NCBI GenBank assembly: GCA_009920495.1
Contig: RFZW01000001.1
Span: 4,191 to 68,190, forward strand
Reading direction: 5' to 3'
Length of the DNA stretch: 64,000 nucleotides
Origin: Chitinophagia bacterium
GTDB lineage: Bacteria; Bacteroidota; Bacteroidia; Chitinophagales; Chitinophagaceae
Each line of letters begins with the position of its first letter. Within the stretch, counting starts at the first letter, position 1. The notes under the pieces are model-generated. The model did not search any database and was not told where the DNA came from. It worked only from the letters and a program-made list of their open reading frames with translations. Positions 2,733-20,602 of this stretch are shown here, one piece after another. The position numbers were made by a program, and so were the translations under genes.

Positions 2733-2794
2733 CTGCGTGAGGAAAACACCCCCTGAATTCGGTTAAAATCGGTTGATTTCCGTTTTGTATAAAC
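2733..2794 (+). repeat. att-like repeat copy 1 (left arm only, truncated)
   Basis: CTGCGTGAGGAAAACACCCCCTGAATTCGGTTAAAATCGGTTGATTTCCGTTTTGT closely matches the left arms starting at 3723 and 12489. Confidence 0.85.
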
Positions 2795-3703: not shown

Positions 3704-3826
3704 CTTATAAAATTAATGTTTTCTGCGTGAGGAAAACACCCCCTGAATTCGACTGAAATCGGTTGTTTTTGGTTTTGTAAAAACATAACACATTACAAAT
3801 CAACGCTTTCATTTTCTCAAAAAATC

Positions 3827-3870
3827 TTCATAACCCTGAGGTCCCGGGTTCAAATCCCGGTCTCGCTACA
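3827..3870 (+). pseudogene. 3' half of elongator tRNA-Met(CAT) (att core fragment)
   Basis: TTCATAA anticodon loop, CCCTG, AGGTC, T-arm CCGGG-TTCAAAT-CCCGG, acceptor 3' strand TCTCGCT-A; no D-arm or 5' acceptor strand upstream. Confidence 0.88.
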
Positions 3871-3912
3871 AAGCCTTTCAACTGAACGCGAAGCGTTTAG
3901 TTGAAAGGCTTT
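3870..3912 (+). terminator. Long hairpin after the tRNA fragment
   Basis: AAAGCCTTTCAACTGAACGC-GAA-GCGTTTAGTTGAAAGGCTTT, 20-bp stem with one G-U pair. Confidence 0.65.
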
Positions 3913-4006
3913 GGGTAAGGCAAACTGTTTGGGAAGACAATGCGCAGATTGGCCATCCCGTTAAATCGTGGGTCCTTTGTTGTTTCTGCGTGAGGTTTTT
4001 GAATAG

Positions 4007-4216
4007 TTACTTCCCGTTCCACGCGTCTATTATTCCTGCTTTAATATCAGTATAACTTGTCATAAGCCAAATTACTAAAACAATAAATAAAATAGTTTTG
4101 CAATGGGTTTTTACCAAAGTTTTTAGGTCATTGAGGAATTGATTCATATCTGTGATTTTAAGTGTTAAATTAAATTCATAGGGTTTGGTATCAGGTTTTT
4201 TAACAAATTCAGACAA
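4007..4216 (-). CDS. Small hypothetical membrane protein
   Basis: One hydrophobic segment (ILFIVLVIWLM); last gene of the minus-strand operon; the start may be the internal Met. Confidence 0.55.
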   Translation of the reverse strand: MSEFVKKPDTKPYEFNLTLKITDMNQFLNDLKTLVKTHCKTILFIVLVIWLMTSYTDIKAGIIDAWNGK

Positions 4217-4218
4217 AT

Positions 4219-5178
4219 CTAATTTCCATCAAATCTAAGAAGTACAATATTATCTAGAATTAAGTTAGATGACCATATAAATTGTGCGCCGCTAAATTGT
4301 GAACTAAAGTTGGTAAAAGAAACTTTGGGTCCTACTTGCGTTGATGTAAAAATATTTGCCGAAGGCCATGCATTAAAATCGTAAGCTGCTGCATACCAGT
4401 CACTAGGAATTGCCCAATGTAATGCGTAAGAAGCATTTGCGGAAGTTGGATAAGTATTACAGCCACTTGAATTACGAATGGCGCCAGTTTCCGTAACACA
4501 ATTTACATTACTCAATGGGGCTATATAAAATGTTTGTGCTTTCCAATTTGAATTTGTAACTGTACCATCGCTAAATTTGGCTATAAATCCCCCGTCACCT
4601 GGGTAAAATGAATTTCCCCCATTAAGTTCACTGCCAATACCTAAATTTTCTTCCCAGTCAATAAGTTTAATTGCATATTTAATTGGTCGCTTTGCTTTAA
4701 ATTTAACAAAGCTTGAATTAAATGGTGTATATGGAATAGGATCAACACCTACTAATTTACCATTCACATAAAGTTCGAAATAATTATCGCCATATAAAAA
4801 ACCACTAATGATTTCTCCATCGTTATCAATAATAATGACTGGGGCTTTTGCTGTATCTGCTAAATTAATTGATGCAGGTGTTTTTCCAACACACTCATTA
4901 TACAAATCAAATAATTTTATACCTGTTGCAAAGCTATTTTCACCCGGTAGTATCCATGTTTTATTGTCTTTTGAAATTATACTACCCATATTTGTAACTC
5001 TACCTCCACTACAGCTATAAATGGAACTATTTGAAATGGCACCTGTTCCTTGCGTGATTGAGCCTGTTCCTGTATAAGTGGCAGGCTGAGTGATAATGTT
5101 ATTATCATTTTGTACAGTATTTTTTGTACAGCCTATTATTAAAATATTGATAATAAAGATTATTGATTTATTGTTCAT
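4219..5178 (-). CDS. Hypothetical lipoprotein, beta-sandwich/lectin-like
   Basis: Lipobox IIGC; DNYFELYVNG and GDGGFIAKF motifs; Cys pairs. Confidence 0.7.
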   Translation of the reverse strand: MNNKSIIFIINILIIGCTKNTVQNDNNIITQPATYTGTGSITQGTGAISNSSIYSCSGGRVTNMGSIISKDNKTWILPGENSFATGIKLFDLYNECVGKTPASINLADTAKAPVIIIDNDGEIISGFLYGDNYFELYVNGKLVGVDPIPYTPFNSSFVKFKAKRPIKYAIKLIDWEENLGIGSELNGGNSFYPGDGGFIAKFSDGTVTNSNWKAQTFYIAPLSNVNCVTETGAIRNSSGCNTYPTSANASYALHWAIPSDWYAAAYDFNAWPSANIFTSTQVGPKVSFTNFSSQFSGAQFIWSSNLILDNIVLLRFDGN

Positions 5179-5179
5179 A

Positions 5180-5389
5180 CTATTTTACTCTTGGTTTGTA
5201 TCTATATGTATTTAAATTTTTGCCAAGTCTCAAATTTGGTTTAGAAGAATAAAATAATGGGCGGTTATAATTATTTCGATAATTATTGTAACGATTATAA
5301 ACGACTACACTTTTCCGGGGATATCTGTATTCTGGATAGCAGCCTGAAATTATTAATGTAGTGATTAAAAAAAATAGAAATAATTTCAT
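5180..5389 (-). CDS. Small hypothetical lipoprotein
   Basis: Signal peptide ending ISGC; tightly packed in the operon. Confidence 0.55.
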   Translation of the reverse strand: MKLFLFFLITTLIISGCYPEYRYPRKSVVVYNRYNNYRNNYNRPLFYSSKPNLRLGKNLNTYRYKPRVK

Positions 5390-5406
5390 AAAGTTATATT
5401 TTAATA

Positions 5407-6825
5407 TTAACGTTGATAGTTTGTTGTAGTAACAATTCCTCCTGTATCAGTTAATGTATAAGTATATTTATTATTAATATCCCAACTGTATTTTACGAAA
5501 CCTGTTTTAGCTCCAATTTTATAAGTTAATAAATAGCCATTGGATCCTACAGCAGCAAAATCGAAAATGACAGCCCCTTTTAATGGGCTTGTTGCAGGTC
5601 GAACAGGTTTGGTAAAAGCTTGTGGCAATATTTGATTCTCGGGTGCTGGTGTTGATGGGTCTAAATTTACTTTTCCTTTCATGGCACCTACTACATATGG
5701 ATAATCACTGGTACCATGATAATGATAGATATTGTTACTTCCAACATGACCATGACATGAATCCAAGGCAATCATTGTACTACCATCTGGCTCTTTGCTT
5801 CCATAAACCGGGAATCCATCTAATGCAAAAGCAATAGGTTTTAATCCAGAAGTAGTTGATAAGTGAAGTGGTGCTGCATGATAGTGGTAGTCATCACCAC
5901 GTCCACAATGCCCACCCCAATTATCTAATTCACCAATTAAATAGGAATCCTCTCCGCGATTGTTCAGTGCATTAAAAATTGGAATACCATTTACTGCAAC
6001 AGCCACTGCGCCCTTCATTAAATTCGTTTTGGTACTTAATGGGGTAGTTGCATAAGCGGGTTGTAATGGGATAGACCAACTGTTGTTATCGGTATAAGGT
6101 TGCGAAATGGGGACTTGTTGTTGCCAACTGGTAATTCCAATCATCATATTATGACTGGGTATGCCAGTTGATCCAATATAAAAGTATGTATCATCCCATT
6201 TGGTAGTAATACTTGGCTTGTAAGGGGTGAAAGCGGAATCTATAAAACCAGTACTCGTTTTTGGAAGCGTAGCAATTGTGTTGTTATTATTTGTGTTCCC
6301 ATTGGTAATGTTGGTTGTAGCTGATTTGCTACATGCAATAGCAACCGTAGTAATGACTAACAATGAAATGCCAAGGAGGTTTAAGTTATTTTTTAAAACA
6401 TATTTATTAAACAAAATTGGTTTAAATATCTTGAATAGTGTAAGTGGTGTTAGTATAATTAATAGATATTGTAAAATTGTTATTAATATAGTTGAAGTAG
6501 AGTTGCCAGAATTTGTAATGTCAAAGTTGTAATTTATTTGGTTTAATTTATTAATCTTAAATTTTGCTAATTTTTGATCTTGTATACTTAAATCTTGGAT
6601 AGGAACAGCTAATAATTTTCCATCTTCTTTTTCTAAATAAATTACATCGCCTTTATTCATCAAAAAATTACCTTTTAATGAGTTGCCGTTTTTCAATTGC
6701 CATGTATTGTATATAGTTCCGTCTCCATGATGATAATGACCACCACTGTGTGCAAACGTTGATAGCGGTTTAGTAATTAATAGTAAAATCATGCATGTAA
6801 AAAACGCCAATAGCTTCTTTTTCAT
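5407..6825 (-). CDS. YHYH domain protein with His-rich N-terminus and SHD1-like domain
   Basis: GVAVNG-like AVAVNGIPIF, GGHCGRGDDYHYH, ALDGFPVYG, LDSCHGH, YHYHG; HSGGHYHH after the signal peptide; two internal TM segments. Confidence 0.88.
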   Translation of the reverse strand: MKKKLLAFFTCMILLLITKPLSTFAHSGGHYHHGDGTIYNTWQLKNGNSLKGNFLMNKGDVIYLEKEDGKLLAVPIQDLSIQDQKLAKFKINKLNQINYNFDITNSGNSTSTILITILQYLLIILTPLTLFKIFKPILFNKYVLKNNLNLLGISLLVITTVAIACSKSATTNITNGNTNNNNTIATLPKTSTGFIDSAFTPYKPSITTKWDDTYFYIGSTGIPSHNMMIGITSWQQQVPISQPYTDNNSWSIPLQPAYATTPLSTKTNLMKGAVAVAVNGIPIFNALNNRGEDSYLIGELDNWGGHCGRGDDYHYHAAPLHLSTTSGLKPIAFALDGFPVYGSKEPDGSTMIALDSCHGHVGSNNIYHYHGTSDYPYVVGAMKGKVNLDPSTPAPENQILPQAFTKPVRPATSPLKGAVIFDFAAVGSNGYLLTYKIGAKTGFVKYSWDINNKYTYTLTDTGGIVTTTNYQR

Positions 6826-6834
6826 ATTTGTAAT

Positions 6835-7413
6835 TTATCTGGTATAAGTGACAGTCATAACAGTACTGTCTAAAATTTTATTTCTAATGCCTGCAAGTAA
6901 TATATCCATAGTAACCTGCGAACTACTCACTGAAATGGTTGGTGCTGCACTTAATGCGTATAAAGTTAAAATATAAACCTTAGCCCCAGGACCTTGAGAA
7001 CAAGGAGGGGTGTATGTATTTTTTCTATCCACTGTGTTTATACCAAAGCTTCCAATACTTTTTGAGTTGTCAGATAAGGAAGTAACCGTATTGGGAATAT
7101 TATACAAAACAATGTATACATGTTTATCTTCAGTAGGGTAAGATGGAGGAAAATGATGCATGGTAATTGCATAAGAATTAGTCCCTGATGGTGCATTTGA
7201 CCACTGCAAACCTGGCGAAAAACCACTACTATCACAGGTATAAACTTTTGGATAAATGCCATTATTGGCAAATCCGTTCCCAGTAAATACGAGCTGTTTA
7301 GCAATAGTAGTTGGCAATGGAGTGGTGGAGTTAGTGTTACTATTTGTACTCGTGCTTTTGGAGCAGCTTAAAAAACTAACAAAAACAAAAAATGTTATTA
7401 AAATTGATTTCAT
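6835..7413 (-). CDS. YbhB/YbcL (PEBP/Raf kinase inhibitor-like) lipoprotein
   Basis: YTCD, SPGLQWSNAP, YTPPCSQGPG, YILTLYALS; lipobox FLSC. Confidence 0.85.
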   Translation of the reverse strand: MKSILITFFVFVSFLSCSKSTSTNSNTNSTTPLPTTIAKQLVFTGNGFANNGIYPKVYTCDSSGFSPGLQWSNAPSGTNSYAITMHHFPPSYPTEDKHVYIVLYNIPNTVTSLSDNSKSIGSFGINTVDRKNTYTPPCSQGPGAKVYILTLYALSAAPTISVSSSQVTMDILLAGIRNKILDSTVMTVTYTR

Positions 7414-7526
7414 AGGGGCATCAATATTGATATTTGGACAGATTTAAATAATTAAAGTTTAATTTTTATTAAACTTTATTTCTCTTCTTAAGTCTAATTT
7501 AACAAAGTTGTAAACGTTGAATCCAT

Positions 7527-9167
7527 ATGGTAAAAAATGTATTTTGTTTTTTAATGGTTTTATGCTTTTCCACAATTGTCAAAGGTCAAAATTATACCAT
7601 CATTCTAGGAAGACCTACTGATAAATCTGTGACTATAAGCATACTTTTTGATCTAAATGTTGATTATTACATTGAATATGGGACTAATTCCGGAGTTTAT
7701 GGAAAAACCACTACAAATTTTGTTGCGAAAGCAAATGTTCCTGATGAGATTGACCTTACAGGATTAAATGCTAATACGAAGTATTATTATAGGGTACAAT
7801 ATAAATCAAATTCAGTATCAAATTTTAAGGTTTCTTCTGAATATTACTTTAACACTCAACGTTCCATAAATACTGTGTTCACTTTCACTGTTGAATCAGA
7901 TGAGCATTTATATGATAAAAAGGGGATTAGAAGTATGTATCAGATAAGTTTGAACAATCAAGCCTTAGACAAACCTGATTTTATGCTTTCATTGGGAGAT
8001 ATTTTTGGGGATGATCACAATCCATTTACAATTACCTCTGCTGAATTAGATGTTTTACACAAGGACTATCGACAATATTTAGGGTCAATTTGTCATTCCA
8101 TTCCTTTTTATATTTCCTTGGGAAATCATGAAGGGGAAAATGATTTTTTTTTAGGTCAAACACCCCCCAACAATTTAGCAATATGGGGAACCCAGTGGCG
8201 CAAGTATTATTACCCTAATCCTTATCCAAATTCATTTTATTCTGGAAATGATGATGTTGAACCTTATGGCGTTGCTAATCCTGAAAACTATTATGCTTGG
8301 ACGTGGGGGGATGCATTATTTGTGGTTTTGGATGTATACCGAAATCAAAATCCAAATTCAGATAAACCACAAGGTTGGGATTGGTCATTAGGTGCGAAAC
8401 AATATAATTGGTTAAAAACAACCCTTGAAAAAAGTACATCTAAATATAAATTTGTTTTTGCTCATCATAATAGAGGTCAAGGACGAGGTGGTATTATTCC
8501 AGCAAAATTATTTGAATGGGGTGGTTATGAGCAAGATGGTAAAACATGGGGTTTTGATAAAAATAGGCCAGGATGGAGCAAACCTATTCATCAATTATTT
8601 AAAGATAATGGGGTAAATATCTTTTTTCAGGGACATGATCATTTGTTTGCACATGAAATGATGGATGGAGTTCATTATCAGGAAGTTCCTATGCCAAGTG
8701 ATTCAACTTATATGATCGGGAAACTTGCAAATGCAGATGCTTTCGTTTCAGACACTTTGGATGGCACAGGTCATATACGTGTTAGTGTTTCATCTTCCTG
8801 TGTAAAAGTTGATTATGTAAAAGCATACTTACCCAAGGATACTTTGGATGGTAAACATAAAAATAGAGAAATTGGCTTTAGTTATACAATTGGCAGTTGT
8901 ATAGTTACAGGCATAAATGACTTACCAAGTGCATCAAATAGTGAGTTTGTAGAAGTTTTTCCTAATCCTGCAAAAAATAAATTATTCCTTCGTTTTATAA
9001 ATAATATCAACAGTTTTGAAGCTAAGTTAATAAATATTAACGGAGATATTTTATTAATATCTAATAACAAAGAAATAGATGTTTCAGGATGGCAGCCAGG
9101 AATATATTTTTTAAATATACAGGCAGGCAATCAAGCTGCAAGAAAAAAAATTATAATAAGCAATTAA
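7527..9167 (+). CDS. Secreted metallophosphoesterase with FN3/PAP N-domain and T9SS C-terminal domain (paralog 1)
   Basis: SDEH, LGD, GNHE, GHDH; C-terminal VFPNPA...GIYFL T9SS sorting domain. Confidence 0.88.
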   Translation: MVKNVFCFLMVLCFSTIVKGQNYTIILGRPTDKSVTISILFDLNVDYYIEYGTNSGVYGKTTTNFVAKANVPDEIDLTGLNANTKYYYRVQYKSNSVSNFKVSSEYYFNTQRSINTVFTFTVESDEHLYDKKGIRSMYQISLNNQALDKPDFMLSLGDIFGDDHNPFTITSAELDVLHKDYRQYLGSICHSIPFYISLGNHEGENDFFLGQTPPNNLAIWGTQWRKYYYPNPYPNSFYSGNDDVEPYGVANPENYYAWTWGDALFVVLDVYRNQNPNSDKPQGWDWSLGAKQYNWLKTTLEKSTSKYKFVFAHHNRGQGRGGIIPAKLFEWGGYEQDGKTWGFDKNRPGWSKPIHQLFKDNGVNIFFQGHDHLFAHEMMDGVHYQEVPMPSDSTYMIGKLANADAFVSDTLDGTGHIRVSVSSSCVKVDYVKAYLPKDTLDGKHKNREIGFSYTIGSCIVTGINDLPSASNSEFVEVFPNPAKNKLFLRFINNINSFEAKLININGDILLISNNKEIDVSGWQPGIYFLNIQAGNQAARKKIIISN

Positions 9168-9174
9168 TTGTAAC

Positions 9175-10788
9175 ATGAAAAAATATATTATTATCATTTT
9201 GATTAATACATTCTTATTCACCGAAGTTAGTTCGCAAAACTATACTGAGGTTTTAGGGAGACCAACTGATTCCACCATTACCCTTAGTATTTTATTTGAT
9301 CAAAGTGTAAATGTGTATTGGGAGTATGGAACATCTCCCGGTAATTATTCTATAATTACACCAGTATATAAAACAATCGCAGATACACCATTAGAAGTAG
9401 ATTTTATTAATTTATTACCAGATACTAAATATTATTATCGAACAAAATATTTAGCAAATAAATCTTCCGGAAATTACATTTCTGGAGCGGAACACTTTTT
9501 TCAAACGCAACGAAAATCAACTACAACATTTTCATTTGTTGTTGAAGCAGATCCACATTTAGATAGTAATACTAATCCAGATGCTTATAAGTTAACCTTA
9601 CAACACATGCTTTCAAAAAAACCCGATTTTATAATTGATCTAGGTGATAATGCAATGAGTGATAAATTACCTGTAATTGATAAAACGTCTATTGTGGATC
9701 GAACCTTATTATTTAGACAATACTTTAATGAGCTTACACATTCTGTTCCATTATATGTAACACTGGGCAATCATGAAGGGGAATTAGGATGGCTTCCAAA
9801 TACAGGTTTAACAAGCTTGCCAACTATGGCTGCTTTAATTAGAAAAACGTATTTTCCCAATCCTTATCCAAATAAATTTTATTCGGGAAATACTATTCCA
9901 GAGGCCAATGTAGGAATTCGAGAAAATTATTATGCTTGGGAATGGGGTAATGCTTTATTTATTGTACTAGATCCATACATGTATACTAAATCAAAACCAG
10001 AATGGGGTTGGACCTTAGGTTTACAACAGTATAATTGGCTAAAAAATACCCTTGCTAATAGTAAAGCAAAATTTAAATTTTTATTTAGTCATCAATTGGT
10101 TGGAGGCTCAGGAACGGAGGGACGCGGCGGAACTGAATTTGCTCATTTATATGAAATGGGCGGTAGAAATACGGATTCTACCTATGGATTTTCAAACAAC
10201 AGACCAGGTTGGGATAAACCTATTCATTACTTAATGTTTGAAAATAAAGCCAGTGTTTATTTTCATGGCCATGATCACTTATTTGCCAAACAAGATAAAG
10301 ATGGCATTGTATATCAAGAAGTCCCTCAACCATCAGCGAAAAATATTACCACTATAACAGGAGCTCCTTATGGTTATGTAAATGGAACCTTATTACCCAA
10401 TAGAGGTTACATGTATGTCACTGTTAGTGCCGATAAGGCACAAGTGGATTATATCAGAACCTATTTGCCAAGTGAAGAAAATGCTACTAGGAAAAACGGA
10501 GATATATCATATACTTATACCATACAACCATCCCCCATTACGGGGATCAATGAAGTTATAAGTAATGATTTTGTTAAAATATTTCCCAATCCAGCAAATA
10601 ATAAAATTAGTATTCAATATAAAGAAAATAATAATTATCAAATTAAAATATTGAATATAATGGGAGAGTCTGTATTGGTTACAAAAACAAAAGAAATTGA
10701 TACAAGTAGATTACCCAATGGCATCTACTTTTTAAATTTCGAAACAGATAAATTTATATCAAGTAAAAAAATTATAATTCAACATTGA
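9175..10788 (+). CDS. Secreted metallophosphoesterase with T9SS C-terminal domain (paralog 2)
   Basis: ADPH, LGD, GNHE, GHDH; IFPNPA...GIYFL C-terminal domain. Confidence 0.88.
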   Translation: MKKYIIIILINTFLFTEVSSQNYTEVLGRPTDSTITLSILFDQSVNVYWEYGTSPGNYSIITPVYKTIADTPLEVDFINLLPDTKYYYRTKYLANKSSGNYISGAEHFFQTQRKSTTTFSFVVEADPHLDSNTNPDAYKLTLQHMLSKKPDFIIDLGDNAMSDKLPVIDKTSIVDRTLLFRQYFNELTHSVPLYVTLGNHEGELGWLPNTGLTSLPTMAALIRKTYFPNPYPNKFYSGNTIPEANVGIRENYYAWEWGNALFIVLDPYMYTKSKPEWGWTLGLQQYNWLKNTLANSKAKFKFLFSHQLVGGSGTEGRGGTEFAHLYEMGGRNTDSTYGFSNNRPGWDKPIHYLMFENKASVYFHGHDHLFAKQDKDGIVYQEVPQPSAKNITTITGAPYGYVNGTLLPNRGYMYVTVSADKAQVDYIRTYLPSEENATRKNGDISYTYTIQPSPITGINEVISNDFVKIFPNPANNKISIQYKENNNYQIKILNIMGESVLVTKTKEIDTSRLPNGIYFLNFETDKFISSKKIIIQH

Positions 10789-10902
10789 GTTATTTATAAA
10801 AATTATAAAGTAAATCAAATTTCTACAATGTTGGTTTAATTATTAATCAATTATCTAATAATATACTATGATTTCAGAAACCAATTATTAAAATAATTTA
10901 TT

Positions 10903-12396
10903 ATGCAGCCAAAAAAACTTATACCTTTTTTCTTTTGTACATCTTTATTGATTATAGTTTCTACAACAAGCTTCTCTCAAAAGGGGAAAAAATTTGAACA
11001 AAAAAAACAAAATCAAAAAGGATCAAAAAACTTTGGGAACAAAATGAGTGAATTAGCAATACCTATTGGAAACATGATTATTGGCTCCCCTACAAATAAT
11101 TCAGTCACTGCAAGTGTAATTCTTGAAAAAGATGCTGAAGGGTTCATTGAATATGCAATAGAAAGTGGTAAATACAATTATAAAACTAGTATGTTTAAAA
11201 CTACAAATAGTGAACCACTTGAAATCATTATTAATCAATTAAAACCAAATTCATTGTATTATTACAGATTAAACTATCGCCTAGCAGGTGAGAGTAAATT
11301 TACTGTAACATCTGAATCTTGGTTTGCAACTCAAAAAAATCCAACTACATCATTCTCTTTTGGAATACAAGGAGATTCACATCCAGAAAGAGTAGGTAAA
11401 ATGTTTAATTCAAATTTATATCAACAAACAATAGAACATGTTACTGAATATAAACCTGATTTCTATTTTATGCTTGGAGATGACTTTAACATAGATAGAC
11501 TGGTAGCAAGTAATTCAGCCACACGTGAAAATGTAGAACCTATTTATAAAACACAACGTTATTATCTAGGTAATCCAGGGACAAATCCACCACTTTACTT
11601 AGTTAACGGTAACCATGAACAGGCTGCCAAATATTTATTGAATGGTACACCAGATAACGCTGCTATACAAGCTGGGCTTGCTAGAAAAAAGTTTTTTCCA
11701 TTACCTGCACCAAATCAATTTTATAGTGGCGATAATGATACAGTTCCATTTATTGGATTACTAAAAGATTATTATGCATTTGAGTGGGGTAATGCTTTGT
11801 TTGTAGTGATAGACCCATATTGGCATTCAGATGTAGCAGTAGACAACCAGCCCAATATTGAAGGGAACAAGGGAAAGAAAGATCCCTGGAGCATCACACT
11901 TGGTATAAAACAATATGAATGGCTTAAAAAAACCTTGGAAAATTCAAAATCAAAATTCAAATTTGTTTTTGCACACCATGTTAATGGTACAGGACGTGGA
12001 GGTGTAGAAAGAGCAAAATATTATGAGTGGGGAGGTTTTGGACAAAATGGGCAATGGCAGTTTGACAGCTATCGAAGCGGATGGGATATGCCCATCCACC
12101 AACTATTTATAAATAACAAAGTATCCATATTTTTTCAGGGGCATGACCACCTTTTTGCAAAACAAGAACTAGATGGTGTTATTTATCAATCTGTACCTAA
12201 TCCGGCAGATGATACTCATACGGCTTTTAATAAAGAAGCTTATACAATTGGAGAAATACTTCCAAATTCTGGATTTTTACATATTACAGTTCATCCTGAG
12301 GATGTGAAAGTGGAATATATAAGATCATACTTCATGAAAAACTCAGAGCACAATGAAGATGCTTCAAAGACTTTTACTTATACCATAAAAAAATAA
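10903..12396 (+). CDS. Metallophosphoesterase without T9SS domain (paralog 3)
   Basis: GDSH, LGDD, GNHE, GHDH; shares YYAxxWGxALFxVxD with paralogs 1 and 2. Confidence 0.88.
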   Translation: MQPKKLIPFFFCTSLLIIVSTTSFSQKGKKFEQKKQNQKGSKNFGNKMSELAIPIGNMIIGSPTNNSVTASVILEKDAEGFIEYAIESGKYNYKTSMFKTTNSEPLEIIINQLKPNSLYYYRLNYRLAGESKFTVTSESWFATQKNPTTSFSFGIQGDSHPERVGKMFNSNLYQQTIEHVTEYKPDFYFMLGDDFNIDRLVASNSATRENVEPIYKTQRYYLGNPGTNPPLYLVNGNHEQAAKYLLNGTPDNAAIQAGLARKKFFPLPAPNQFYSGDNDTVPFIGLLKDYYAFEWGNALFVVIDPYWHSDVAVDNQPNIEGNKGKKDPWSITLGIKQYEWLKKTLENSKSKFKFVFAHHVNGTGRGGVERAKYYEWGGFGQNGQWQFDSYRSGWDMPIHQLFINNKVSIFFQGHDHLFAKQELDGVIYQSVPNPADDTHTAFNKEAYTIGEILPNSGFLHITVHPEDVKVEYIRSYFMKNSEHNEDASKTFTYTIKK

Positions 12397-12592
12397 AATT
12401 CTAATTGCCCCCAAGGGTTTATTATTTTATTTTAAAGTTTGGAGTTATAAGAATGAATTTCTAAACTTGATAAAATGATGAAATTCCTCTGCGTGAGGAA
12501 AACGCCCCCTGAATTCGGTCCAAATCGGTTGATTTCGGTTTTGTAAAAAAATAACCTATTAAAAATCAACACTTTCATTTACTTGAAAAATC

Positions 12593-12636
12593 TTCATAAT
12601 CCTGAGGTCCCGGGTTCAAATCCCGATCTCGCTACA
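12593..12636 (+). pseudogene. 3' half of elongator tRNA-Met(CAT) (att core fragment, second copy)
   Basis: TTCATAATCCTGAGGTCCCGGGTTCAAATCCCGATCTCGCTACA; 2 differences from 3827-3870. Confidence 0.88.
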
Positions 12637-12668
12637 AAGCCTCTCAACGCAAGTTGAGAGGCTTTTTT
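12637..12668 (+). terminator. Rho-independent terminator after the tRNA fragment
   Basis: AAGCCTCTCAAC-GCAA-GTTGAGAGGCTT followed by a T-tract. Confidence 0.75.
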
Positions 12669-13037
12669 AATGTGAAGCCGCGAAACAAGCTTGCTTGATT
12701 GAGCGGAGGAGCGTTAAAAAAGACAAACGCAAATCGAAGATTTGTGTTTGAAAGGCTTTGGGTAAGGCGACCTTGGAGGATGACAGCGAACGAAGTGAAG
12801 CTGGCAATCCCGTTAAATAGTGGGTCCTTTTTTGTTTTTACGTGAGGTTTTCTATTTTCTTACGAATGCCCTTTAATTACAATCTTCATTATTTTATAGT
12901 TCAGTATAAAAAAACGAATTAATTGAAAGAATATAGATCTCCTTAAAAACAATGTAAAATTATTAGGGGTAGGAGGATAATACTGCTCGGAGTATTTTGT
13001 TATAATGAGTCTGTTTTCCATTATGTTTTTTTTATTT

Positions 13038-14501
13038 TTATTCAGGAATCATCCACCAAAATGGCAAACCTTTTGCTTTGTATAAGAACATATAATGCAT
13101 TAACCACTTTAACCAATGTCCTGCCAATCCTGGTTCGCCCATGGTGGTTTTAATATCTCTTCCCCACTGAGGAAATTTTTCCCAATCGGGTACTACAGGG
13201 CTCACAGTCATGGTAGCCGCAGTTCCTTTTCGCATGCCATATCCAGCTGATACAATACAAGCTGCACCCATACGTCCCATTGATGCCTTGTGAATCATTG
13301 TGGCATTGCCAGTTTTTATCCAGTTTATGATATTGTCTGCTGTTACCTTGCCCATAATTCCTGAAGGCATACCAGTTCTTGGGGCTGATGCAAAAATGGG
13401 TGTACCATTTTTACTTGTCATGGGTTTAGAAATAGAGTGGGGAGGTGCAAATGCAATACCGGGTGCAAAGATGTTAGGATAACTTGGATTTTGATAAGTT
13501 TCAGGCCAATCTTTAATAGTCCATTGTTCAAATGGTTTTGGGGTATAGTCTGCATCTACTTTCATAAGTCCACTTAGTGCAAATAATTTATCTGAAATGT
13601 CTTTACCTGTTTTATCATAGGCTTTAAATCCATGTCCTGCAAAACCTGGTATGAGCATCGCGAAATCATAGGGCTGTTCTAAATATTCCCCATCTAAATT
13701 TTCGTAATAAATTGTATGATCGTCTAATTTTTTCACACCTGCTCTTTTAATCCAGGTAATGTTTCTTTCAACAAAATATGATTCTGCAAACAACTTAGTA
13801 TTTGAAATAAATCCACCTTTTGGAATAAAGGCGCCACCCATTCCAAAGTCACCTAATTCATATTCATTCGTAATCCAAATTACTTGGGCTTGCTTTTCTA
13901 ATCCTCTTCTTTTAATTTCAAAATCAACATTTAAAATATACTCAAAGGCGGCACCTTGGCAGGTTGCAGTGGGATAGCCTGTTCCAATGACAAAAATTTG
14001 TTTTTCGCCATTTTTCATTTTGTCCAATTTTTCTTGAAATAGTTCCCATGCATGACTGGCATGACCAAAAGTACATACCGATGCAATATTCCCATTTCCA
14101 GGAACTAGACCTTCTGTTGCTTCAAAGTTTAATTTTGGTCCCGTAGCATTAATTAAATAATCGTAAGCTACTTTTATTTTTTCACCTTTATTTTCTTCGT
14201 TGGTATATTCTACTTCAACAAATCCTGTATTCATATGCTCATCACCTTCAGGGTAAAAACTTTGCGCCTTCGCTTGAATAAATTCAATCCCCCATTTTTT
14301 ATACAATGGTCTTAAATCAAATTTAATTTCTTCAGGGGTCATTCTACCAACACCCACCCAAATATTGGATGGAATCCATTGATAGTTTGGAGTAGGAGAG
14401 ATCACTTTTATCTTATGCTCGTTTTTATTGAGTCCTTTTTGAAGGTATGCCGCAGCCGTATGACCAGCAACGCCTGCGCCTAATACAACAATATTTGCCA
14501 T
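13038..14501 (-). CDS. sqr: Sulfide:quinone oxidoreductase family flavoprotein
   Basis: GAGVAG Rossmann motif, WIPSNIWVGVG, SVCT, TCQGAAFEY, PRTGMPSG, amphipathic C-terminus; sulfur-transfer gene neighbours. Confidence 0.8.
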   Translation of the reverse strand: MANIVVLGAGVAGHTAAAYLQKGLNKNEHKIKVISPTPNYQWIPSNIWVGVGRMTPEEIKFDLRPLYKKWGIEFIQAKAQSFYPEGDEHMNTGFVEVEYTNEENKGEKIKVAYDYLINATGPKLNFEATEGLVPGNGNIASVCTFGHASHAWELFQEKLDKMKNGEKQIFVIGTGYPTATCQGAAFEYILNVDFEIKRRGLEKQAQVIWITNEYELGDFGMGGAFIPKGGFISNTKLFAESYFVERNITWIKRAGVKKLDDHTIYYENLDGEYLEQPYDFAMLIPGFAGHGFKAYDKTGKDISDKLFALSGLMKVDADYTPKPFEQWTIKDWPETYQNPSYPNIFAPGIAFAPPHSISKPMTSKNGTPIFASAPRTGMPSGIMGKVTADNIINWIKTGNATMIHKASMGRMGAACIVSAGYGMRKGTAATMTVSPVVPDWEKFPQWGRDIKTTMGEPGLAGHWLKWLMHYMFLYKAKGLPFWWMIPE

Positions 14502-14545
14502 GTTATCTTGTTTCAGTAAATGTACTTACTGCCTTTGCCAATAGT

Positions 14546-14561
14546 AGTGATATATATCACA
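14546..14561. promoter_or_regulatory. CRP/FNR-type palindrome
   Basis: AGTGA-TATATA-TCACA in the sqr / CoA-disulfide reductase divergent promoter region. Confidence 0.65.
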
Positions 14562-14602
14562 ATTGATAATTTAAAATCCAATTAATATCATAACTAGTGT
14601 AG

Positions 14603-14618
14603 CGTGATTTATGTCACA
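14603..14618. promoter_or_regulatory. CRP/FNR-type palindrome
   Basis: CGTGA-TTTATG-TCACA, 46 bp upstream of the 14665 start. Confidence 0.65.
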
Positions 14619-14664
14619 ATTAAGATTTTATTATTGATTGAACTTTGTGGTCTAAAATATTAAA

Positions 14665-16329
14665 ATGAAATACATAATAGTTGGCGCAGTGGCAGGTGGA
14701 GCAAGCACTGCAGCAAGGTTAAGACGCTTGGATGAGCATGCTGAAATCGTACTATTTGAAAAGGGCGAGTATATTTCTTATGCCAATTGTGGTTTGCCCT
14801 ATTATATTGGAAATGTAATTACAGATAGAAATAAATTATTTGTACAAACTGCGGCCTCTTTTAATCAAAGATTTAAGATTGATGTTCGAATTCAAACCGA
14901 GGTATTAGAAGTGAATGCTGCAACTAAAATCATTAATGCAAGAAATCAGAAAACAGGAGAACTTTACAGTGAAACTTATGATAAATTGGTTTTGTCTCCT
15001 GGTGCTGAACCTATGAGGCCGCCTTTATCTGGAATAATGAGTGAAGGGATATTCACATTAAGAAATGTGAATGATACGGATTACATTAAGTCCTATGTTA
15101 GTAATAGAGCAATTAAAAAAGCAGTGGTGATTGGTGCTGGTTTTATTGGATTAGAAATGGCCGAAAATTTGCAAGAATTAGGAATGGAAGTGAGTATCAT
15201 CGAAATGGGTAATCAAATATTAGCGCCATTAGATTTTCCTATTGCAGCCATTGTTCAACAGCATATCCGCAGTAAAGGAGTAGATCTAAGTTTAAATACA
15301 GCAGTTACAGGATTTGAGAAAGTAGGTAACCAATTAAAAGTCAATTTAAAATCTGGGGAATCCATAGATGCGGATGTTGTGATATTATCTATTGGAGTAA
15401 AGCCAGATACAAAATTAGCAGTAGGGGCAGGTCTTAAAATAGGAGAAACTAGAGGTATATGGGTAAATGAATTCTTACAAACCTCTAACCCTGATATATA
15501 TGCAGTTGGTGATGCGATTGAATTCACTAACCCAATTACGAATCAAGCCTTAATTACTTATTTAGCAGGTCCTGCCAATAAACAAGGTCGCATTTGTGCT
15601 AATAATATAGTGCTAGGAAATGTACAAAGCTATCATGGTTCAATTAATACAGCTATTGTAAAAGTGTTTGATATGACCATTGCTACTGCTGGAACAGCGG
15701 CTAAACATTTAACCACTGCCCATATCGAGCATAAGGTTTCCACAACACATAATGGATCTCATGCTAGTTATTATCCTGGTTCAAAACAAATGAGTATCCA
15801 AATTGCATTTTCGATAAAAACAGGTCAGTTATTGAGTGCTCAAATTGCAGGTTATGATGGAGTAGATAAAAGGATAGACATTTTATCGTCTATTATTAAA
15901 AGAAAAGGCACCATTGATGAAATGGTTGAATTTGAACATGCTTATGCACCTCCTTATTCTTCAGCAAAAGACCCTGTAAATATGGCTGGTTTTGTAGCTG
16001 AAAATATTATATTAGATAGGCTCCGTATTTTTTATTGGAATGAGCTACCTACTATAAGCCCTGACGATTTATTAATTGATGTAAGAACTGCAGCTGAATT
16101 TGAAAATGGAAAAATACCCAATGCAATCAATATTCCTATTGATGAGATTAGAGATAGATTAGGAGAGATTTCAAAAAATAAAAGAATTTATATTTATTGC
16201 GAGGCAGGACTTAGAGGGTACTTAGCACAACGAATACTTTTACAGAATGGCTATGAGCAAGTACAAAACCTATCGGGTGGGTATCAATTATGGAAGGCCG
16301 CAAGTACTGAGTTAGCTTTAGTTTCTTAA
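14665..16329 (+). CDS. CoA-disulfide/persulfide reductase with C-terminal rhodanese domain (CoADR-RHD/Npsr-like)
   Basis: GAVAGG, SYANCGLPY, GAGFIG, YAPPYS, rhodanese IDVR...YCEAGLRG. Confidence 0.9.
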   Translation: MKYIIVGAVAGGASTAARLRRLDEHAEIVLFEKGEYISYANCGLPYYIGNVITDRNKLFVQTAASFNQRFKIDVRIQTEVLEVNAATKIINARNQKTGELYSETYDKLVLSPGAEPMRPPLSGIMSEGIFTLRNVNDTDYIKSYVSNRAIKKAVVIGAGFIGLEMAENLQELGMEVSIIEMGNQILAPLDFPIAAIVQQHIRSKGVDLSLNTAVTGFEKVGNQLKVNLKSGESIDADVVILSIGVKPDTKLAVGAGLKIGETRGIWVNEFLQTSNPDIYAVGDAIEFTNPITNQALITYLAGPANKQGRICANNIVLGNVQSYHGSINTAIVKVFDMTIATAGTAAKHLTTAHIEHKVSTTHNGSHASYYPGSKQMSIQIAFSIKTGQLLSAQIAGYDGVDKRIDILSSIIKRKGTIDEMVEFEHAYAPPYSSAKDPVNMAGFVAENIILDRLRIFYWNELPTISPDDLLIDVRTAAEFENGKIPNAINIPIDEIRDRLGEISKNKRIYIYCEAGLRGYLAQRILLQNGYEQVQNLSGGYQLWKAASTELALVS

Positions 16330-16345
16330 ACTTAGATTAAGTAAT

Positions 16346-16380
16346 AAAAAAGGAGCCATCGTAATTATGGCTCCTTTTTT
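16346..16380. terminator. Bidirectional Rho-independent terminator
   Basis: AAAAAAGGAGCCAT-CGTAATT-ATGGCTCCTTTTTT between convergent genes. Confidence 0.85.
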
Positions 16381-16407
16381 ATTTAGCTATTTTCAACTAA
16401 AATTTTG

Positions 16408-16584
16408 CTACTTTTTTGAATTACTGTTCAAACCTAAAATAGTGTACAAAGGACAAAAACTAACAATACTCGTTAATAAAAAAACACCACCTACTACGAG
16501 TAAAACAATACCTGCTGTACCTTCTATGGTTTTAGTAATATAAAGCATTGCAAATGCAATGGCTATAATAATTCTAATTGCTTT
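16408..16584 (-). pseudogene. DUF2892 (YgaP-like) membrane protein lacking its N-terminus
   Basis: Hand translation KAIRIIIAIAFAMLYITKTIEGTAGIVLLVVGGVFLLTSIVSFCPLYTILGLNSNSKK*; FCPLY motif; no start codon, joined out of frame to the upstream gene. Confidence 0.75.
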
Positions 16585-16754
16585 GCAACTAAAAAGCCCA
16601 TTACTGCACCATACAAGGTACTGTTAATTGGCTTAGAAGTAATCATGCAGGTACCACTAGAACAACCTACAAATTTCCAATATAAGAAACCAGCTACCGC
16701 TCCAAGGGTAATACCTATTAAATCTCGTTTATACTTTTGAAAAAATAAAGTCAT
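16563..16754 (-). CDS. DUF6132 family small membrane protein (C-terminus probably altered by a deletion)
   Basis: GFLYWKFVGCSSGTCMITSKPINSTLYG motif. Confidence 0.8.
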   Translation of the reverse strand: MTLFFQKYKRDLIGITLGAVAGFLYWKFVGCSSGTCMITSKPINSTLYGAVMGFLVAKQLELL

Positions 16755-16756
16755 AG

Positions 16757-17065
16757 TTATCTAAGTTTTGATTGAAGTCCAAACCAAGAACCTCCATTAT
16801 ACACTTCGATACCTGCAGCTTTTAGTACTGATTTAGCCATACCGCTTCTAGCACCACTTTGACAAACTGTAATTACAGGTTTATTCCACTTTTTAATATT
16901 ACTTATTTCTCGTTGAACATTATTTACAGGAATATTTTTGGATCCCTTAATATTACCTCTATCAAATTCTTGAGGAGAACGAACGTCCAAAATAATAGCA
17001 CCTGCCTCTTTGAGTTCTTTAAAATCAGTTCCAGGGCCAAATAGTTTTTTGAAAAAGGGGAACAT
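16757..17065 (-). CDS. Rhodanese-like protein
   Basis: ILDVRSPQEF, VCQSGARS. Confidence 0.9.
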   Translation of the reverse strand: MFPFFKKLFGPGTDFKELKEAGAIILDVRSPQEFDRGNIKGSKNIPVNNVQREISNIKKWNKPVITVCQSGARSGMAKSVLKAAGIEVYNGGSWFGLQSKLR

Positions 17066-17066
17066 A

Positions 17067-17354
17067 TTAATTATTGTTTATGATGTTATTTAGGCTAAAA
17101 ATTCCGCCTCCATTATAAATGTCTTGTATACCATTTTGTTGCAAGATGCCAGTAGCCATTGAGCTACGGCCTCCACTTAAGCAATAGACAACAATTGGCT
17201 TTTGCATTGCAGAGATTTGCTTCATATTGGATTCAATAATATCTAAAGGGATATTGATCGCACCGGGGATGTGGTTTTCTTCAAATTCCATAGGGCTTCT
17301 AACGTCTAATAAAGTGCCCTTTTTTTCCTTAATGGATTTAATTATATTTTGCAT
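17067..17354 (-). CDS. Rhodanese-like protein
   Basis: LLDVRSPMEF, HIPGAINIP, YCLSGGRS. Confidence 0.9.
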   Translation of the reverse strand: MQNIIKSIKEKKGTLLDVRSPMEFEENHIPGAINIPLDIIESNMKQISAMQKPIVVYCLSGGRSSMATGILQQNGIQDIYNGGGIFSLNNIINNN

Positions 17355-17403
17355 TTTGATATATTTTTCTTGTACAAAAGTACATTAACCCAATACTTAA
17401 TTG

Positions 17404-17419
17404 GGTGACATATATCACA
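17404..17419. promoter_or_regulatory. CRP/FNR-type palindrome upstream of the rhodanese operon
   Basis: GGTGA-CATATA-TCACA. Confidence 0.65.
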
Positions 17420-17429
17420 CTACAATGTA

Positions 17430-17937
17430 TTATTTTTTGATCCAGTCAAAAGAGTTTCGGTTCATAATAATCCAGCCGTTATGCTCCATTTTCTTTAATA
17501 GGCGACTAATTACTTCTCTTGAGGTGTTTAAGTCATTGGCAATATCCTGATGGGTTAAATTCACAATGGCACCAAATTGTTTCACATATTTTAGAATATA
17601 AAATTCTAAACGCTCATCCATATTTTTAAATGCATATATCAGTCACCGCCTTAGCTAATACCTGGCTTTGCTCATGATGATAGTTGCATACCAAAGTGAC
17701 AGCACATGCTTCACCTGGATTTAAATGGTACATAAAATATTCACCACCGGTTTCGTCTTCCTGATAAAGTTTAATGGTTCCTTCTACCACCAACATGGCA
17801 GATTTGATATTCTGACCCATTTTTAATAAAGTAGTACCTGCTTTTACTTCTTTCAATTCTGCTTCATTGAGTATGGCATCGTATAAGCCGTCCTCCCAAT
17901 CAGGGAATAGTTTTGTAAGCTTTTCTTTTGATAACAT
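17430..17937 (-). pseudogene. Crp/Fnr family regulator split by an internal deletion/frameshift
   Basis: cNMP-binding domain ORF 17626-17937 and HTH ORF 17430-17621 (THQDIANDLNTSREVISRLL); the linker helix is missing and the frame changes near 17635. Confidence 0.85.
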
Positions 17938-17979
17938 ATAAAGTTAAATTCTACTGTGAATATACGCTATTTGAAGGAA

Positions 17980-17995
17980 TGTAATAATTGTCACA
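17980..17995. promoter_or_regulatory. CRP/FNR-type palindrome
   Basis: TGTAA-TAATTG-TCACA between the crp start and the divergent thioredoxin operon. Confidence 0.55.
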
Positions 17996-18038
17996 AACAG
18001 GCAGTTTTCATTGGTTTAATTTTGAAAAAATACTAAAA

Positions 18039-18296
18039 ATGAGAAATTTACTTTCTAAAATTGATTATACACTAACATTTAGATTACTGCTGAGTATAGC
18101 TATGTGTTATACAGGATACATACAAAATGATTACATGTCAGGTATATTTGGCTTATTCTTGGCTATATATGCAATTATAGGTGCAAAGTATAAAATTGGT
18201 TGTGGATACAACGGATGCGCTTATACGCCAACTCATAAGTCTAAAGAGATATTGGTGGAAGATGTTAAACATATTGATTTTACCGAAATAAAATAA
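18039..18296 (+). CDS. Small membrane protein (DUF2892-like, Cys pair)
   Basis: Two TM helices followed by IGCGYNGC; ATG 18039 preferred over TTG 17988. Confidence 0.65.
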   Translation: MRNLLSKIDYTLTFRLLLSIAMCYTGYIQNDYMSGIFGLFLAIYAIIGAKYKIGCGYNGCAYTPTHKSKEILVEDVKHIDFTEIK

Positions 18297-18301
18297 ATAA
18301 C

Positions 18302-18613
18302 ATGTCCAGTCCTGAAACATTTGCAACAATCATTAATGGTGATTTACCTGTCTTAGTTGATTTTTTTGCTGAGTGGTGTGGCCCCTGTAAAATGATGCCT
18401 CCCATTTTGGAACAAGTTAGAGATAAGTTAGGGGGTAATGTTCGTATTATAAAAATTGATGTAGATAAAAATCAAAAACTAGCATCAGAGTTAAATGTAT
18501 CTAGTGTACCAACGCTTGCAATTTTTTCAAAGGGAGAAATTAAATGGAGACAGCCTGGTGTTCAACAAGCCAACTCATTGGTTCAATTATTAAATAAGTA
18601 TATTGTGTCATAG
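18302..18613 (+). CDS. trxA: Thioredoxin
   Basis: DFFAEWCGPCK motif. Confidence 0.93.
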   Translation: MSSPETFATIINGDLPVLVDFFAEWCGPCKMMPPILEQVRDKLGGNVRIIKIDVDKNQKLASELNVSSVPTLAIFSKGEIKWRQPGVQQANSLVQLLNKYIVS

Positions 18614-18668
18614 TTGGTGTATGATATAATTTATTTTATATACCATAGAATCGAAATAATAAATAATT

Positions 18669-19265
18669 ATGAATTCATTTTGGAACGATAGATACAGTGA
18701 AACCGAATTTGTGTATGGAATAGCACCTAATATATATTTTGCTGAGGAATTAGGTAAATTAAAACCAGGTACTATTATTTTACCTTGTGATGGAGAAGGC
18801 CGTAATGCGGTACATGCAGCAAGACAAGGATGAAATGTACAAGCATTTGATTTAAGTGAAGCTGGAAAAGTAAAGGCCGATGGTTTGGCTTTAAAGTATG
18901 ATGTAAAAATTAGTTTTCAGCTACAAGATGCTGCCCTGGCTGTGTATCCAGCAGCAAGCGCAGATGCTGTTGCTATTATTTATACGCATTTGCCTACACC
19001 CATAAGAAAGGAATTATACAAGAATATAATCCAATGGTTAAAATCTGGCGGGAAAGTTATTTTAGAAACATTTTGTCCTGATCAATTAAAAAATAATTCT
19101 GGAGGTCCAAAGGACATTGATATGCTTAATACCAAGGAAATTCTTTCAGAAGATTTCAAAGATTTAAGCATTGATTATTTGGAGTATGTGCAAATTCAAT
19201 TGAGTGAAGGTAAGTATCATGAAGGTCAAGCAGATGTGATAAGAATGATCGCAACGAAGCTATAA
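18669..19265 (+). pseudogene. Class I SAM-dependent methyltransferase with an in-frame TGA at 18831
   Basis: MNSFWNDRY...LPCDGEGRNAVHAARQG*NVQAFD continues in frame into ORF 18885-19265. Confidence 0.85.
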
Positions 19266-19279
19266 TTATTACCTATCCT

Positions 19280-19392
19280 TGTGTGAGGAAAACACCCCAT
19301 CAAATCGGTCCAAATCGGTTGTTTTCGGTTTTGTGAAAACATAACCCATTACAAATCAACGCCATCCCGTTAAATCGTGGGTCCTTTGTTGC
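19280..19392 (+). repeat. att-like repeat copy 4 (both arms, core deleted)
   Basis: TGTGTGAGGAAAACACCCC...ACAAATCAACGC joined directly to CATCCCGTTAAATCGTGGGTCCTTTGTTG. Confidence 0.85.
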
Positions 19393-19393: not shown

Positions 19394-19933
19394 TTAATGC
19401 AGTTTAGGTTTTGTTAGAACTTTTTTTAATTTAATTATTATTCCTATTAGGATTATCAGATAAGTAATACTTGATAATATAAATTTAAAAGAGTTGGTTA
19501 CAGATCCTATCGAAACTAATGTTTCTGATATTGGACCTGAATTTAAATAGGTTTTTAGCATAACTAATTCAACGTAATTCTCTGCCCAATCGGCAATCAT
19601 ACATAAAATAGGAATAATCAATAATAGACGCCTGTTATTAAAAAAGTACATAATCCAAGATGCGTACATCAAAGTATAAACAAATGCAAAAATTGCGTCC
19701 CAAATTTGAAGAAATTCTCTATAACATAGAAGCTGCTCCTGAGTCCTTGATTCAAAGAATTTTCGAACCATTTCTAAAGAGTAAGAGAAAGAAAGACCTA
19801 ATGAACTTGCTCCTGTATCAATTTTGAAGCAACTACCAAATGGAGCTAAAATGTATGTGATATACAAGGAAAAAACTAAAGTAAAACCTATAGCTAAATA
19901 TAGAGCTCGATTATTCTTGAAATATTTAATCAT
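19394..19933 (-). CDS. Hypothetical integral membrane protein
   Basis: Four TM segments, ADWAEN motif; 179 aa. Confidence 0.7.
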   Translation of the reverse strand: MIKYFKNNRALYLAIGFTLVFSLYITYILAPFGSCFKIDTGASSLGLSFSYSLEMVRKFFESRTQEQLLCYREFLQIWDAIFAFVYTLMYASWIMYFFNNRRLLLIIPILCMIADWAENYVELVMLKTYLNSGPISETLVSIGSVTNSFKFILSSITYLIILIGIIIKLKKVLTKPKLH

Positions 19934-19951
19934 TTTGATGATTTTTTATTA

Positions 19952-20524: not shown

Positions 20525-20602
20525 AAGTTTTTTATTAATCCTTTATGGGTTGTCTAAAGATATAACATCGCCTTTAATTACAACCTATCATAAACCTTTT
20601 GG

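Follow-up and report, generated by a model that had tools for sequence, protein, structure and literature searches.

The att sites of phage lambda have an overlap of 7 bp, and the excisionase sites X1, X1.5 and X2 lie in order between an arm site and a bender box. Integrons are polarized rows of exchangeable, integrase-less cassettes that decay away from the entry point; their attC sites form hairpins, and IntI is encoded beside attI. In the available parts of the published accounts, lambda Int and its att sites constitute a heterobivalent tyrosine recombinase system with Xis sites X1, X1.5 and X2 (PMC4880445); streptococcal CIMEs have lost their integration genes and kept attL and attR, and are stacked with intact elements at one target, with a chimeric attI between them (PMC5704250); the Islander tandem call needs an integrase in each member and gives four tandems of at least three among 3919 islands (PMC4383910); and Prochlorococcus tycheposons encode their own integrase (10.1101/2020.12.28.424599). 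The same kind of excerpts describe for CTnDOT (IntDOT) and NBU1 arm-type sites and the need for a host factor of the IHF/HU family, for which E. coli IHF substitutes in vitro and which is BHFa in Bacteroides, and contain no cassette arrays (PMC2817482, PMC6606824, PMC5704250).

Here we analysed a stretch of 64,000 nucleotides (the window), in which an earlier note had read a repeat as a recombination site. The repeat is very probably the junction of neighbouring gene cassettes stacked at tRNA-Met(CAT). It likely serves a tyrosine integrase, absent from the assembly, as a composite attachment site of the lambda type, in which the attR of one cassette abuts the attL of the next. Judged from its sequence, the array is not an integron. 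It is, like an integron, a polarized row of exchangeable integrase-less cassettes that decays away from the entry point; unlike one, it has double-stranded lambda-type att junctions with a tRNA core, its recombinase is neither IntI nor resident at the array, and its cassettes are multi-gene and lie in either orientation. IntI was not found in G000, the assembly that holds the window.

The array appears instead to resemble a lambda-type att system and to fit the concept of CIMEs and tandem accretion. The likeness to lambda extends to a three-domain integrase with an arm-binding N-domain, probable arm sites far from the core on both sides with candidate bender-type boxes between, three phased repeats on the attR arm, an Xis-like partner gene and a 7-bp overlap. 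Unlike lambda, the left arm has one conserved repeat and no P1/H1 equivalent, a tRNA anticodon loop forms the core, the integrase shares ~15% identity with lambda Int and carries a CxxC...CxH motif in its N-domain, most sites lie in integrase-less cassettes, and the int element is not a phage, with one match in viral contigs. As in CIMEs and tandem accretion, the cassettes are bounded by attL and attR and lack int and xis, and their decay from an intact element is supported by int remnants; unlike CIMEs, they form long rows, are common (60/200 genomes) and small, share one arm family and usually lack a helper. No conjugation genes were seen beside int in the ORF lists. Islander islands and tycheposons, as far as their accounts were available, share the anticodon-centred crossover (Islander site A), the displaced 3' tRNA fragments and the outward push by successive integration; the cassettes here, unlike Islander tandems and tycheposons, are integrase-less yet have full arms. 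CTnDOT and NBU1 likewise have a Bacteroidota tyrosine integrase with arm-type sites and differ in target.

The att layout is textbook, and integrase-less tandem accretion is here an unusually common variant. No description of this array was found in the literature searched. Of use here is an integrase-less array linked to its likely recombinase, an excisionase candidate and binding sites, which makes it directly testable; the case adds a matched int-xis pair, the covariation of arm and N-domain and a helical-turn spacing. Such arrays escape island finders that demand one integrase per member.

Cassette junctions at a half tRNA-Met(CAT)

At its centre the repeat contains half a tRNA, the 3' portion of an elongator tRNA-Met(CAT) (3827-3870 and 12593-12636), which begins at the anticodon loop TTCATAA. 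The copy at 3827-3870 agrees base for base with the intact gene of G011, G015 and others. It was recognised from the sequence and the relatives' intact gene; ARAGORN gave no tRNA in the window, and an Rfam scan of the window gave no match at the gathering threshold. The relatives' intact tRNA carries a right arm only and stands behind pth and a FAH-type gene (names from sequences), and their internal junctions have the order left arm, tRNA 3' half from the 7-bp anticodon loop, right arm. Taken together, these arrangements define a cassette as right arm (attL), cargo and left arm (attR), with an attP-like junction. Identity in the short overlap shared by attB and attP starts (Met clade) or ends (tRNA-fMet clade) at the same 7-bp anticodon loop, from which we infer TTCATAA as the probable crossover (overlap) region.

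The G000 assembly is 78% complete and has four further cores on contigs C298 and C135, usually followed downstream by a perfect IHF-consensus box, then a terminator-like hairpin and a tandem of at most three GCGTGAGG repeats. Within 25 kb, G011 has four partial sites besides five additional tRNA halves, and the core-to-core distance has a median of 4.3 kb (24 intervals). One junction, at G000 C298:938-1056, has collapsed between the left and right AAATCAA boxes, with the tRNA core deleted. At G000 C135:61-1675, a cassette for a 453-aa AAA-type ATPase (named by sequence) has inserted into the tRNA 3' end and shows a short duplication only; its insertion point differs from the anticodon loop.

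The window holds the following junctions (J1 to J4) and cassettes:

2734..2790 (+): J1, left arm alone, truncated ahead of box and core; the cassette upstream ends in a complete junction in L222
2906..3536 (+): MNT-HEPN toxin-antitoxin pair (nucleotidyltransferase and HepT; Pfam), 91% identical to a tRNA-adjacent cassette in G012
3724..3732 (+): J2, single left-arm (attR-side) repeat TGCGTGAGG at the outer edge of the conserved arm; likely integrase arm-type site
3746..3775 (+): J2, three 10-bp phased repeats with cores TCGAC/TCGGT/TTGGT, candidate excisionase sites (lag-10 self-identity 0.61, p = 0.0004)
3798..3810 (+): J2, left IHF-like box, one mismatch, 29 bp before the core; position kept in divergent arms
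3827..3833 (+): J2, anticodon loop TTCATAA, putative crossover; identity with the intact tRNA begins here
3827..3870 (+): J2, tRNA-Met(CAT) 3' half, from identity to the relatives' intact gene
3871..3958 (+): J2, hairpin-rich (REP-like) insert (fold z = -6.25), in place of a 17-bp segment that holds the perfect IHF-consensus box
3959..3980 (+): J2, rest of the right-arm terminator-like hairpin, from comparison with intact right arms
3987..3995 (+): J2, sole remaining right-arm (attL-side) repeat, 71 bp beyond the normal core distance; three are usual in an intact attL
4000..12480: cassette B, 8.5 kb, with a YHYH protein, a PEBP-family protein and three metallophosphoesterases, two with a T9SS tail (Pfam)
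12490..12847 (+): J3, full extent; arm repeat at 12490, TCGGT at 12515, 12525 and 12535, box at 12564, core at 12593
12593..12636 (+): J3, tRNA half with two changes and a mismatched T-stem
12637..12810 (+): J3, insert, followed by a hairpin remnant and the arm repeat at 12839
12855..19275: cassette C, 6.4 kb, with pyridine nucleotide-disulphide oxidoreductases, rhodaneses, a cNMP-binding protein and a thioredoxin (Pfam)
19280..19387 (+): J4, left arm joined straight to the insert end and hairpin, core deleted
19395..20600 (-): cassette D, 1.2 kb, two ORFs without a Pfam match; other neighbours in L196 and L225
20602..20653 (+): decayed left arm at the distal array end; in L196 and L225 the preceding cassette has a full junction at its end
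21098..21122 (+): decayed right-arm hairpin

The window covers the distal end of the array, and the DUF179 gene that follows is also distal in six relatives. Both J2 and J3 have lost the right-arm IHF-consensus box, with the hairpin-rich insert in its place, and the surviving right repeat of J3 lies 157 bp further out than normal. The insert of G020C27 and L188 is followed by a duplicated tRNA end and then an intact box, and G001 and G015 have the same insert join as the window; the window form could be explained by a later 28-bp deletion of the duplicated tRNA end and box. The left arms of J2 and J3 look intact, and their right arms, which lack the box and two of the three repeats, are probably poor attL sites. 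Related hairpin-rich inserts follow other tRNAs at G000 C46:29-175 and C61:35-207, and members also occur at C121:2230-2320 and C161:240-290. This insert family stands right behind tRNA 3' ends, duplicates the tRNA end from the T-loop, clearly so in G020C27 and L188 and in tandem in G015, and looks like a second, tRNA-3'-targeting miniature element.

The cargo is found in other contexts as well. Cassette C is 96-98% identical in G020, where it has different neighbours and an intact right arm, and the copper-oxidase cassette before J1 and cassettes C and D occur elsewhere at 91-98% identity with other neighbours and breaks at the junctions. Such comparisons show modular exchange, not its agent. 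Fourteen DNA runs contain 94-99% of the sampled words of 3600-13200, and six of them are possible sources of this DNA. Contigs from four other runs cover cassettes B and C and break at the repeats, the joints being explained by other junction copies. These read contigs carry 125 additional letters at 17634 in 3/4 runs and 102 at 20987 in 4/4. Two window genes, a cNMP-domain regulator (17626-17937) and the gene before J4 (18660-19265), are shorter than their 210-aa and 198-aa counterparts in G020, which may reflect strain deletions or assembly collapses.

Arm repeats and the likely integrase

The earlier note had placed a 9-mer in direct orientation at both ends of the repeat. The 9-mer is present there and direct throughout: TGCGTGAGG starts at 3724, 3987 and 12490, each one base after the position given (3723, 3986 and 12489), and TACGTGAGG starts at 12839, as described. 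Additional arm copies lie on the forward strand of the window at 2734 and 19280 (TGTGTGAGG). The genome contains 15 exact copies of the 9-mer, 11 of them inside the array; at one mismatch, six were observed against 4.25 expected, which is no enrichment, and all six lie within junctions.

For the left arm, 86 of 108 unique upstream sequences were compared, the 22 others being less than 70% identical (other arm families, indel variants, unrelated flanks). The majority-base frequency rises at the repeat from 0.45 outside to 0.90-0.93 inside, and five of the 86 arms exchange GCGTGAGG for GTGTCATG in place. The distance from repeat to core is constant in 123 of 129 arms. There is one repeat only, conservation ends at -104, and no conserved second site like lambda P1/H1 was found; the Flavobacterium-type left arm of L152 has two repeats. 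Another family of left arms shares the tRNA-Met core and has a pair of GTGCGC/TTGCGC-type repeats near -105; it includes G011C1 (oriented 36023), L164, L188, L218, L219, L232, L238 and L252.

A candidate for the protein that reads these repeats is a 423-aa tyrosine recombinase encoded behind attL in G019 (family ~422 aa). Among 39 loci of its family the gene ends directly at the tandem repeats in 34, has cargo in between and the repeats at attL in three, and is cut off in two. Going by record titles, most relatives that carry the integrase belong to freshwater Sediminibacterium or Chitinophagaceae, and some to Flavobacterium. R262, K290, R369 and a tyrosine at ~400/401 are conserved in the relatives' integrases, and the His positions vary. 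The protein falls just below the cut-off of Pfam PF00589, and its profile matched no solved structure by sequence. Its model (mean pLDDT 71) has lambda Int structures as best matches (Foldseek E 8e-10); the structural alignment with lambda Int spans 301 residues, among them lambda residues 19-64 (Z 14.6, rmsd 17). The N-domain is modelled as three strands and a helix, and its nearest Atlas clusters are the arm-binding families PF09003 (lambda) and PF02920 (Tn916), at a score of 0.95 with only 124 and 120 of 256 features shared. An invariant CxxC...CxH at A1 positions 18-30 of the arm-binding domain is a possible zinc site.

The arm repeat differs with the integrase, the alleles being GCGTGAGG, GTGTGAGG, GTGTCATG, GAGTGAGG and GTGTCGGG, with TGCGCTAG in the tRNA-fMet sister clade. 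Within 17 full-length Met-clade proteins we compared GCGTGAGG integrases (4) with those of the GTGT type (7). Thirteen of 69 N-domain columns were diagnostic, as against 0/115 in the core-binding and 0/215 in the catalytic domain (0/330 elsewhere). In the tree of the N-domain each group comes out as a clade (with support of 94 and 97), and the remainder of the protein rejects the same groupings (AU p = 0.0002 and 0.008); for GTGTCATG alone as a group, the C-terminal part gives no rejection (p = 0.11). The arm allele follows the N-terminal domain of the integrase. Since the repeats adjoin the catalytic end of int, physical linkage would predict the opposite pattern. The covariation comprises 11 related proteins and few independent events. 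No paper matching such arm-domain swaps was found in the literature searched; as natural swaps they offer ready integrase/arm pairs for studying how arm specificity changes.

With a likely integrase found, an arm allele that tracks its N-terminal domain and phased spacing, the view that the TGCGTGAGG repeats serve as integrase arm sites is well supported, and we regard it as highly likely. The same observations give good support to the broader proposal of the earlier note, that the repeat would be a directional recombination site rather than a passive duplication.

No int or xis was present among the window cassettes. Searches of G000, G011, G012, G015 and G027, which are incomplete or fragmented assemblies, did not detect int (the positive control G019 was detected), and the two tyrosine recombinases of G000 are XerD- and XerC-like only. 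The contig with pth and FAH, C29, ends just before the tRNA, so a tRNA-adjacent int element could be unassembled.

Many int elements have, besides int, a short tyrosine-recombinase-like gene (160-207 aa) that comprises the catalytic part only (L123:3976-4545, L053:3446-3931, L073 and L136:2238-2807). A sister integrase clade (L159-L163, L165-L176) splits the initiator tRNA-fMet at the anticodon loop; its int side keeps the tRNA 5' half only, and the far end rebuilds an intact gene with upstream DNA supplied by the element (L161, L170, L171).

Phased triplet, excisionase candidate and putative bender boxes

Three TCGGT repeats lie exactly 10 bp apart at 12515, 12525 and 12535, as the earlier note had described, and its statement that they are partly conserved in other left arms holds for the 3724 copy, which reads TCGAC/TCGGT/TTGGT. 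With up to two mismatches, the phased triplet has three matches against 0.03 expected, all of them copies of one arm. Exact TCGGT occupies sites 1, 2 and 3 in 35, 77 and 49 of the 86 arms, and a 10/11-bp periodicity is significant in 85 of these. Divergent arms show no general pattern of this kind (p < 0.05 for the 10-bp periodicity in only 1 of 9), and six divergent arms keep the second TCGGT in two cases and sites 1 and 3 in none. The triplet is truly phased, yet clade-specific and polymorphic. The named left-arm motifs together had an entropy of 0.29 versus 0.39 at the remaining arm positions (P = 0.14), which is no significant excess conservation. A concentration of conservation on the motifs, the check put forward earlier, was thus found in part: the whole arm is conserved in the close family, whereas divergent arms focus on the arm motif and the box.

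Directly upstream of int, and mostly overlapping its start, a gene of ~126 aa is found in 25 aligned loci. Its product has a wHTH fold with BldC, Pukovnik Xis, RdfS and GIsul2 Xis as nearest structures, at middling Z scores of 5.4-6.6 (below 8). It had no significant match in Pfam, PHROG or NCBIfam and no Foldseek match at E <= 0.001; most of its Atlas neighbours are clusters without a name, and HTH_17, at 0.88, is no more than a lead. The gene was not found in G000, G011, G012, G015 or G027, all incomplete or fragmented assemblies. That the triplet represents excisionase sites is plausible, with the balance about even: an excisionase-fold gene is coupled to int, but TCGGT is not extra-conserved and the triplet is lost in divergent arms.

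The IHF-like sequence AATCAAC(G/A)CTTTC begins at 3798 and 12564, exactly where it had been placed. It was scored against the string given in the earlier note, which we take to be the IHF consensus. At one mismatch, this consensus has 241 matches versus 215 ± 15 expected, a number reached by 5 of 100 shuffles and so at chance level; without mismatch, the genome contains the consensus 424 times. Since neither the 9-mer nor the one-mismatch IHF motif is enriched, both are informative by position only.

Position is where the boxes stand out. A perfect IHF-consensus box is present in 76 of 83 distinct intact right arms. Among 24 int-linked attL sites, 21 have the box at +48 (16) or +57 to +59 (5) and a box-to-arm distance of 41/42 (15) or 52/53 (6), variants that are steps of one helical turn; the other three, of Flavobacterium type, lie outside this rule. 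The tRNA-fMet sister clade has unrelated intervening DNA, yet its first arm is at +88/89 in 14/14 loci and its box at +47/48 in 12/14, several of the loci being near-identical. Some integrase-less right arms are displaced by about half a turn (+84 in 18), and right arms at internal junctions retain 0-3 repeats. On the left, five of six divergent arms, with 23-54% identity to the window arm, keep WWTCAA at -29. A terminator-like hairpin overlaps the right-arm box, and part of the conservation of this box could be due to the hairpin stem. The host has a single IHF/HU-family gene (G000:C327), below the IHF cut-offs.

The boxes on either side of the core are probably sites for a host bender of the IHF/HU family. 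The box named by the earlier note was right in kind and fixed in position but is the weaker example, with a chance-level motif; the perfect box belongs to intact right arms and is absent in the window. A perfect IHF consensus also recurs between prs-like and ribosomal-L25-like genes in several relatives (L120:13331; downstream of prs in L063, L065 and L068), hinting that a host protein reads the motif.

A doubtful alternative retains the att reading and takes the triplet and boxes for a promoter or terminator feature or for neutral tandem remnants, not Xis or IHF sites. The absence of excess conservation, the loss of the triplet in divergent arms, the chance-level one-mismatch consensus, the abundance of the perfect one and the hairpin under the right box would all agree with it, but it does not account for WWTCAA held at -29, for the helical-turn spacing with the same offsets in the fMet clade, or for an Xis-fold gene coupled to int; in addition, a set of three phased sites placed between arm site and box is reminiscent of X1/X1.5/X2 of lambda, sites named in PMC4880445.

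Distribution and mobility of the cassettes

Of 200 genomes of the genus, 60 contain the left arm, and a metagenome scan for it returned at least 145 stretches. Integrase relatives (at least 64% identity, at least 280 residues) occur in 11 of 200 genomes, six of which are among the 60 with the arm, both 200-genome sets being taken as one, with agreeing identifiers. C-terminal int codons follow 13 of 139 examined right arms without the full gene, including one on G000 C135, and 16 more lead into long int sequence. Because some cassettes retain the last int codons, they likely derive from int elements by internal deletion. Int elements stand in tandem with cassettes in G146, G171 and L164; full int elements are found beside the tRNA as well as inside arrays (L164, G171), so new integration into arrays happens.

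These observations suggest a mechanism in which an integrase from a helper element would cut at the 7-bp anticodon loop, its N-domain binding the arm repeats, one on the left and three in tandem on an intact right arm. A host IHF/HU-family protein would bend the DNA at the boxes flanking the core, and the excisionase-like protein encoded beside int would bind the three phased left-arm repeats and permit excision. New cassettes would likely enter beside the tRNA and push older ones outward, where their sites decay, and cassettes would move only upon the visit of a helper element. It is possible, and we propose it tentatively, that freshwater Sediminibacterium has a population-wide integron-like cassette system made of full lambda-type att sites, in which a rare int-xis element excises single cassettes, transfers them and stacks them anew in trans, and natural N-domain swaps (GCGTGAGG, GTGTGAGG, GTGTCATG) set the helper range.

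Rather unlikely, in our view, is that the att scars are genuine but dead, each cassette being the decayed remains of an element, and that homologous recombination, through shared flanks and the ~250-bp copies of the junction, does the reshuffling in place of a visiting integrase. Ten junction copies, and no intact tRNA, have mismatched T-stems, most of which look like two-allele hybrids, which points to homologous recombination as well. A full integrase in only six of the 60 arm-bearing genomes, the many deleted or truncated junctions (J1 and J4 in the window), the wear of internal right arms down to 0-3 repeats and the lack of a usable circle sign in the read contigs would also fit dead scars. 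Against this stand the unchanged distance from left arm to core, which was measured mostly in int-less cassettes, the perfect box kept in intact right arms, and the full int elements beside the tRNA and within arrays (L164, G171).

A passive duplication, a MITE with TGCGTGAGG as 9-bp target-site duplications or an XerC/D dif-like module is very improbable: the 9-mer does flank both window copies directly, and XerC/XerD-like proteins are the only tyrosine recombinases in the assembly, but the same 9-mer accompanies every copy whatever the neighbours, is present three times on intact right arms and varies with the integrase N-domain, and the centre is a tRNA half, with the intact tRNA having a right arm only. 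The target-site-duplication and dif-module readings were rejected on these grounds.

The arm is present in 30% of the genomes sampled from this common freshwater genus, and the arrays carry copper-oxidase, sulfur/redox, phosphoesterase and toxin-antitoxin cargo. Outside the array, at 35384-37121, the window also contains a rhodopsin gene beside a beta-carotene dioxygenase.
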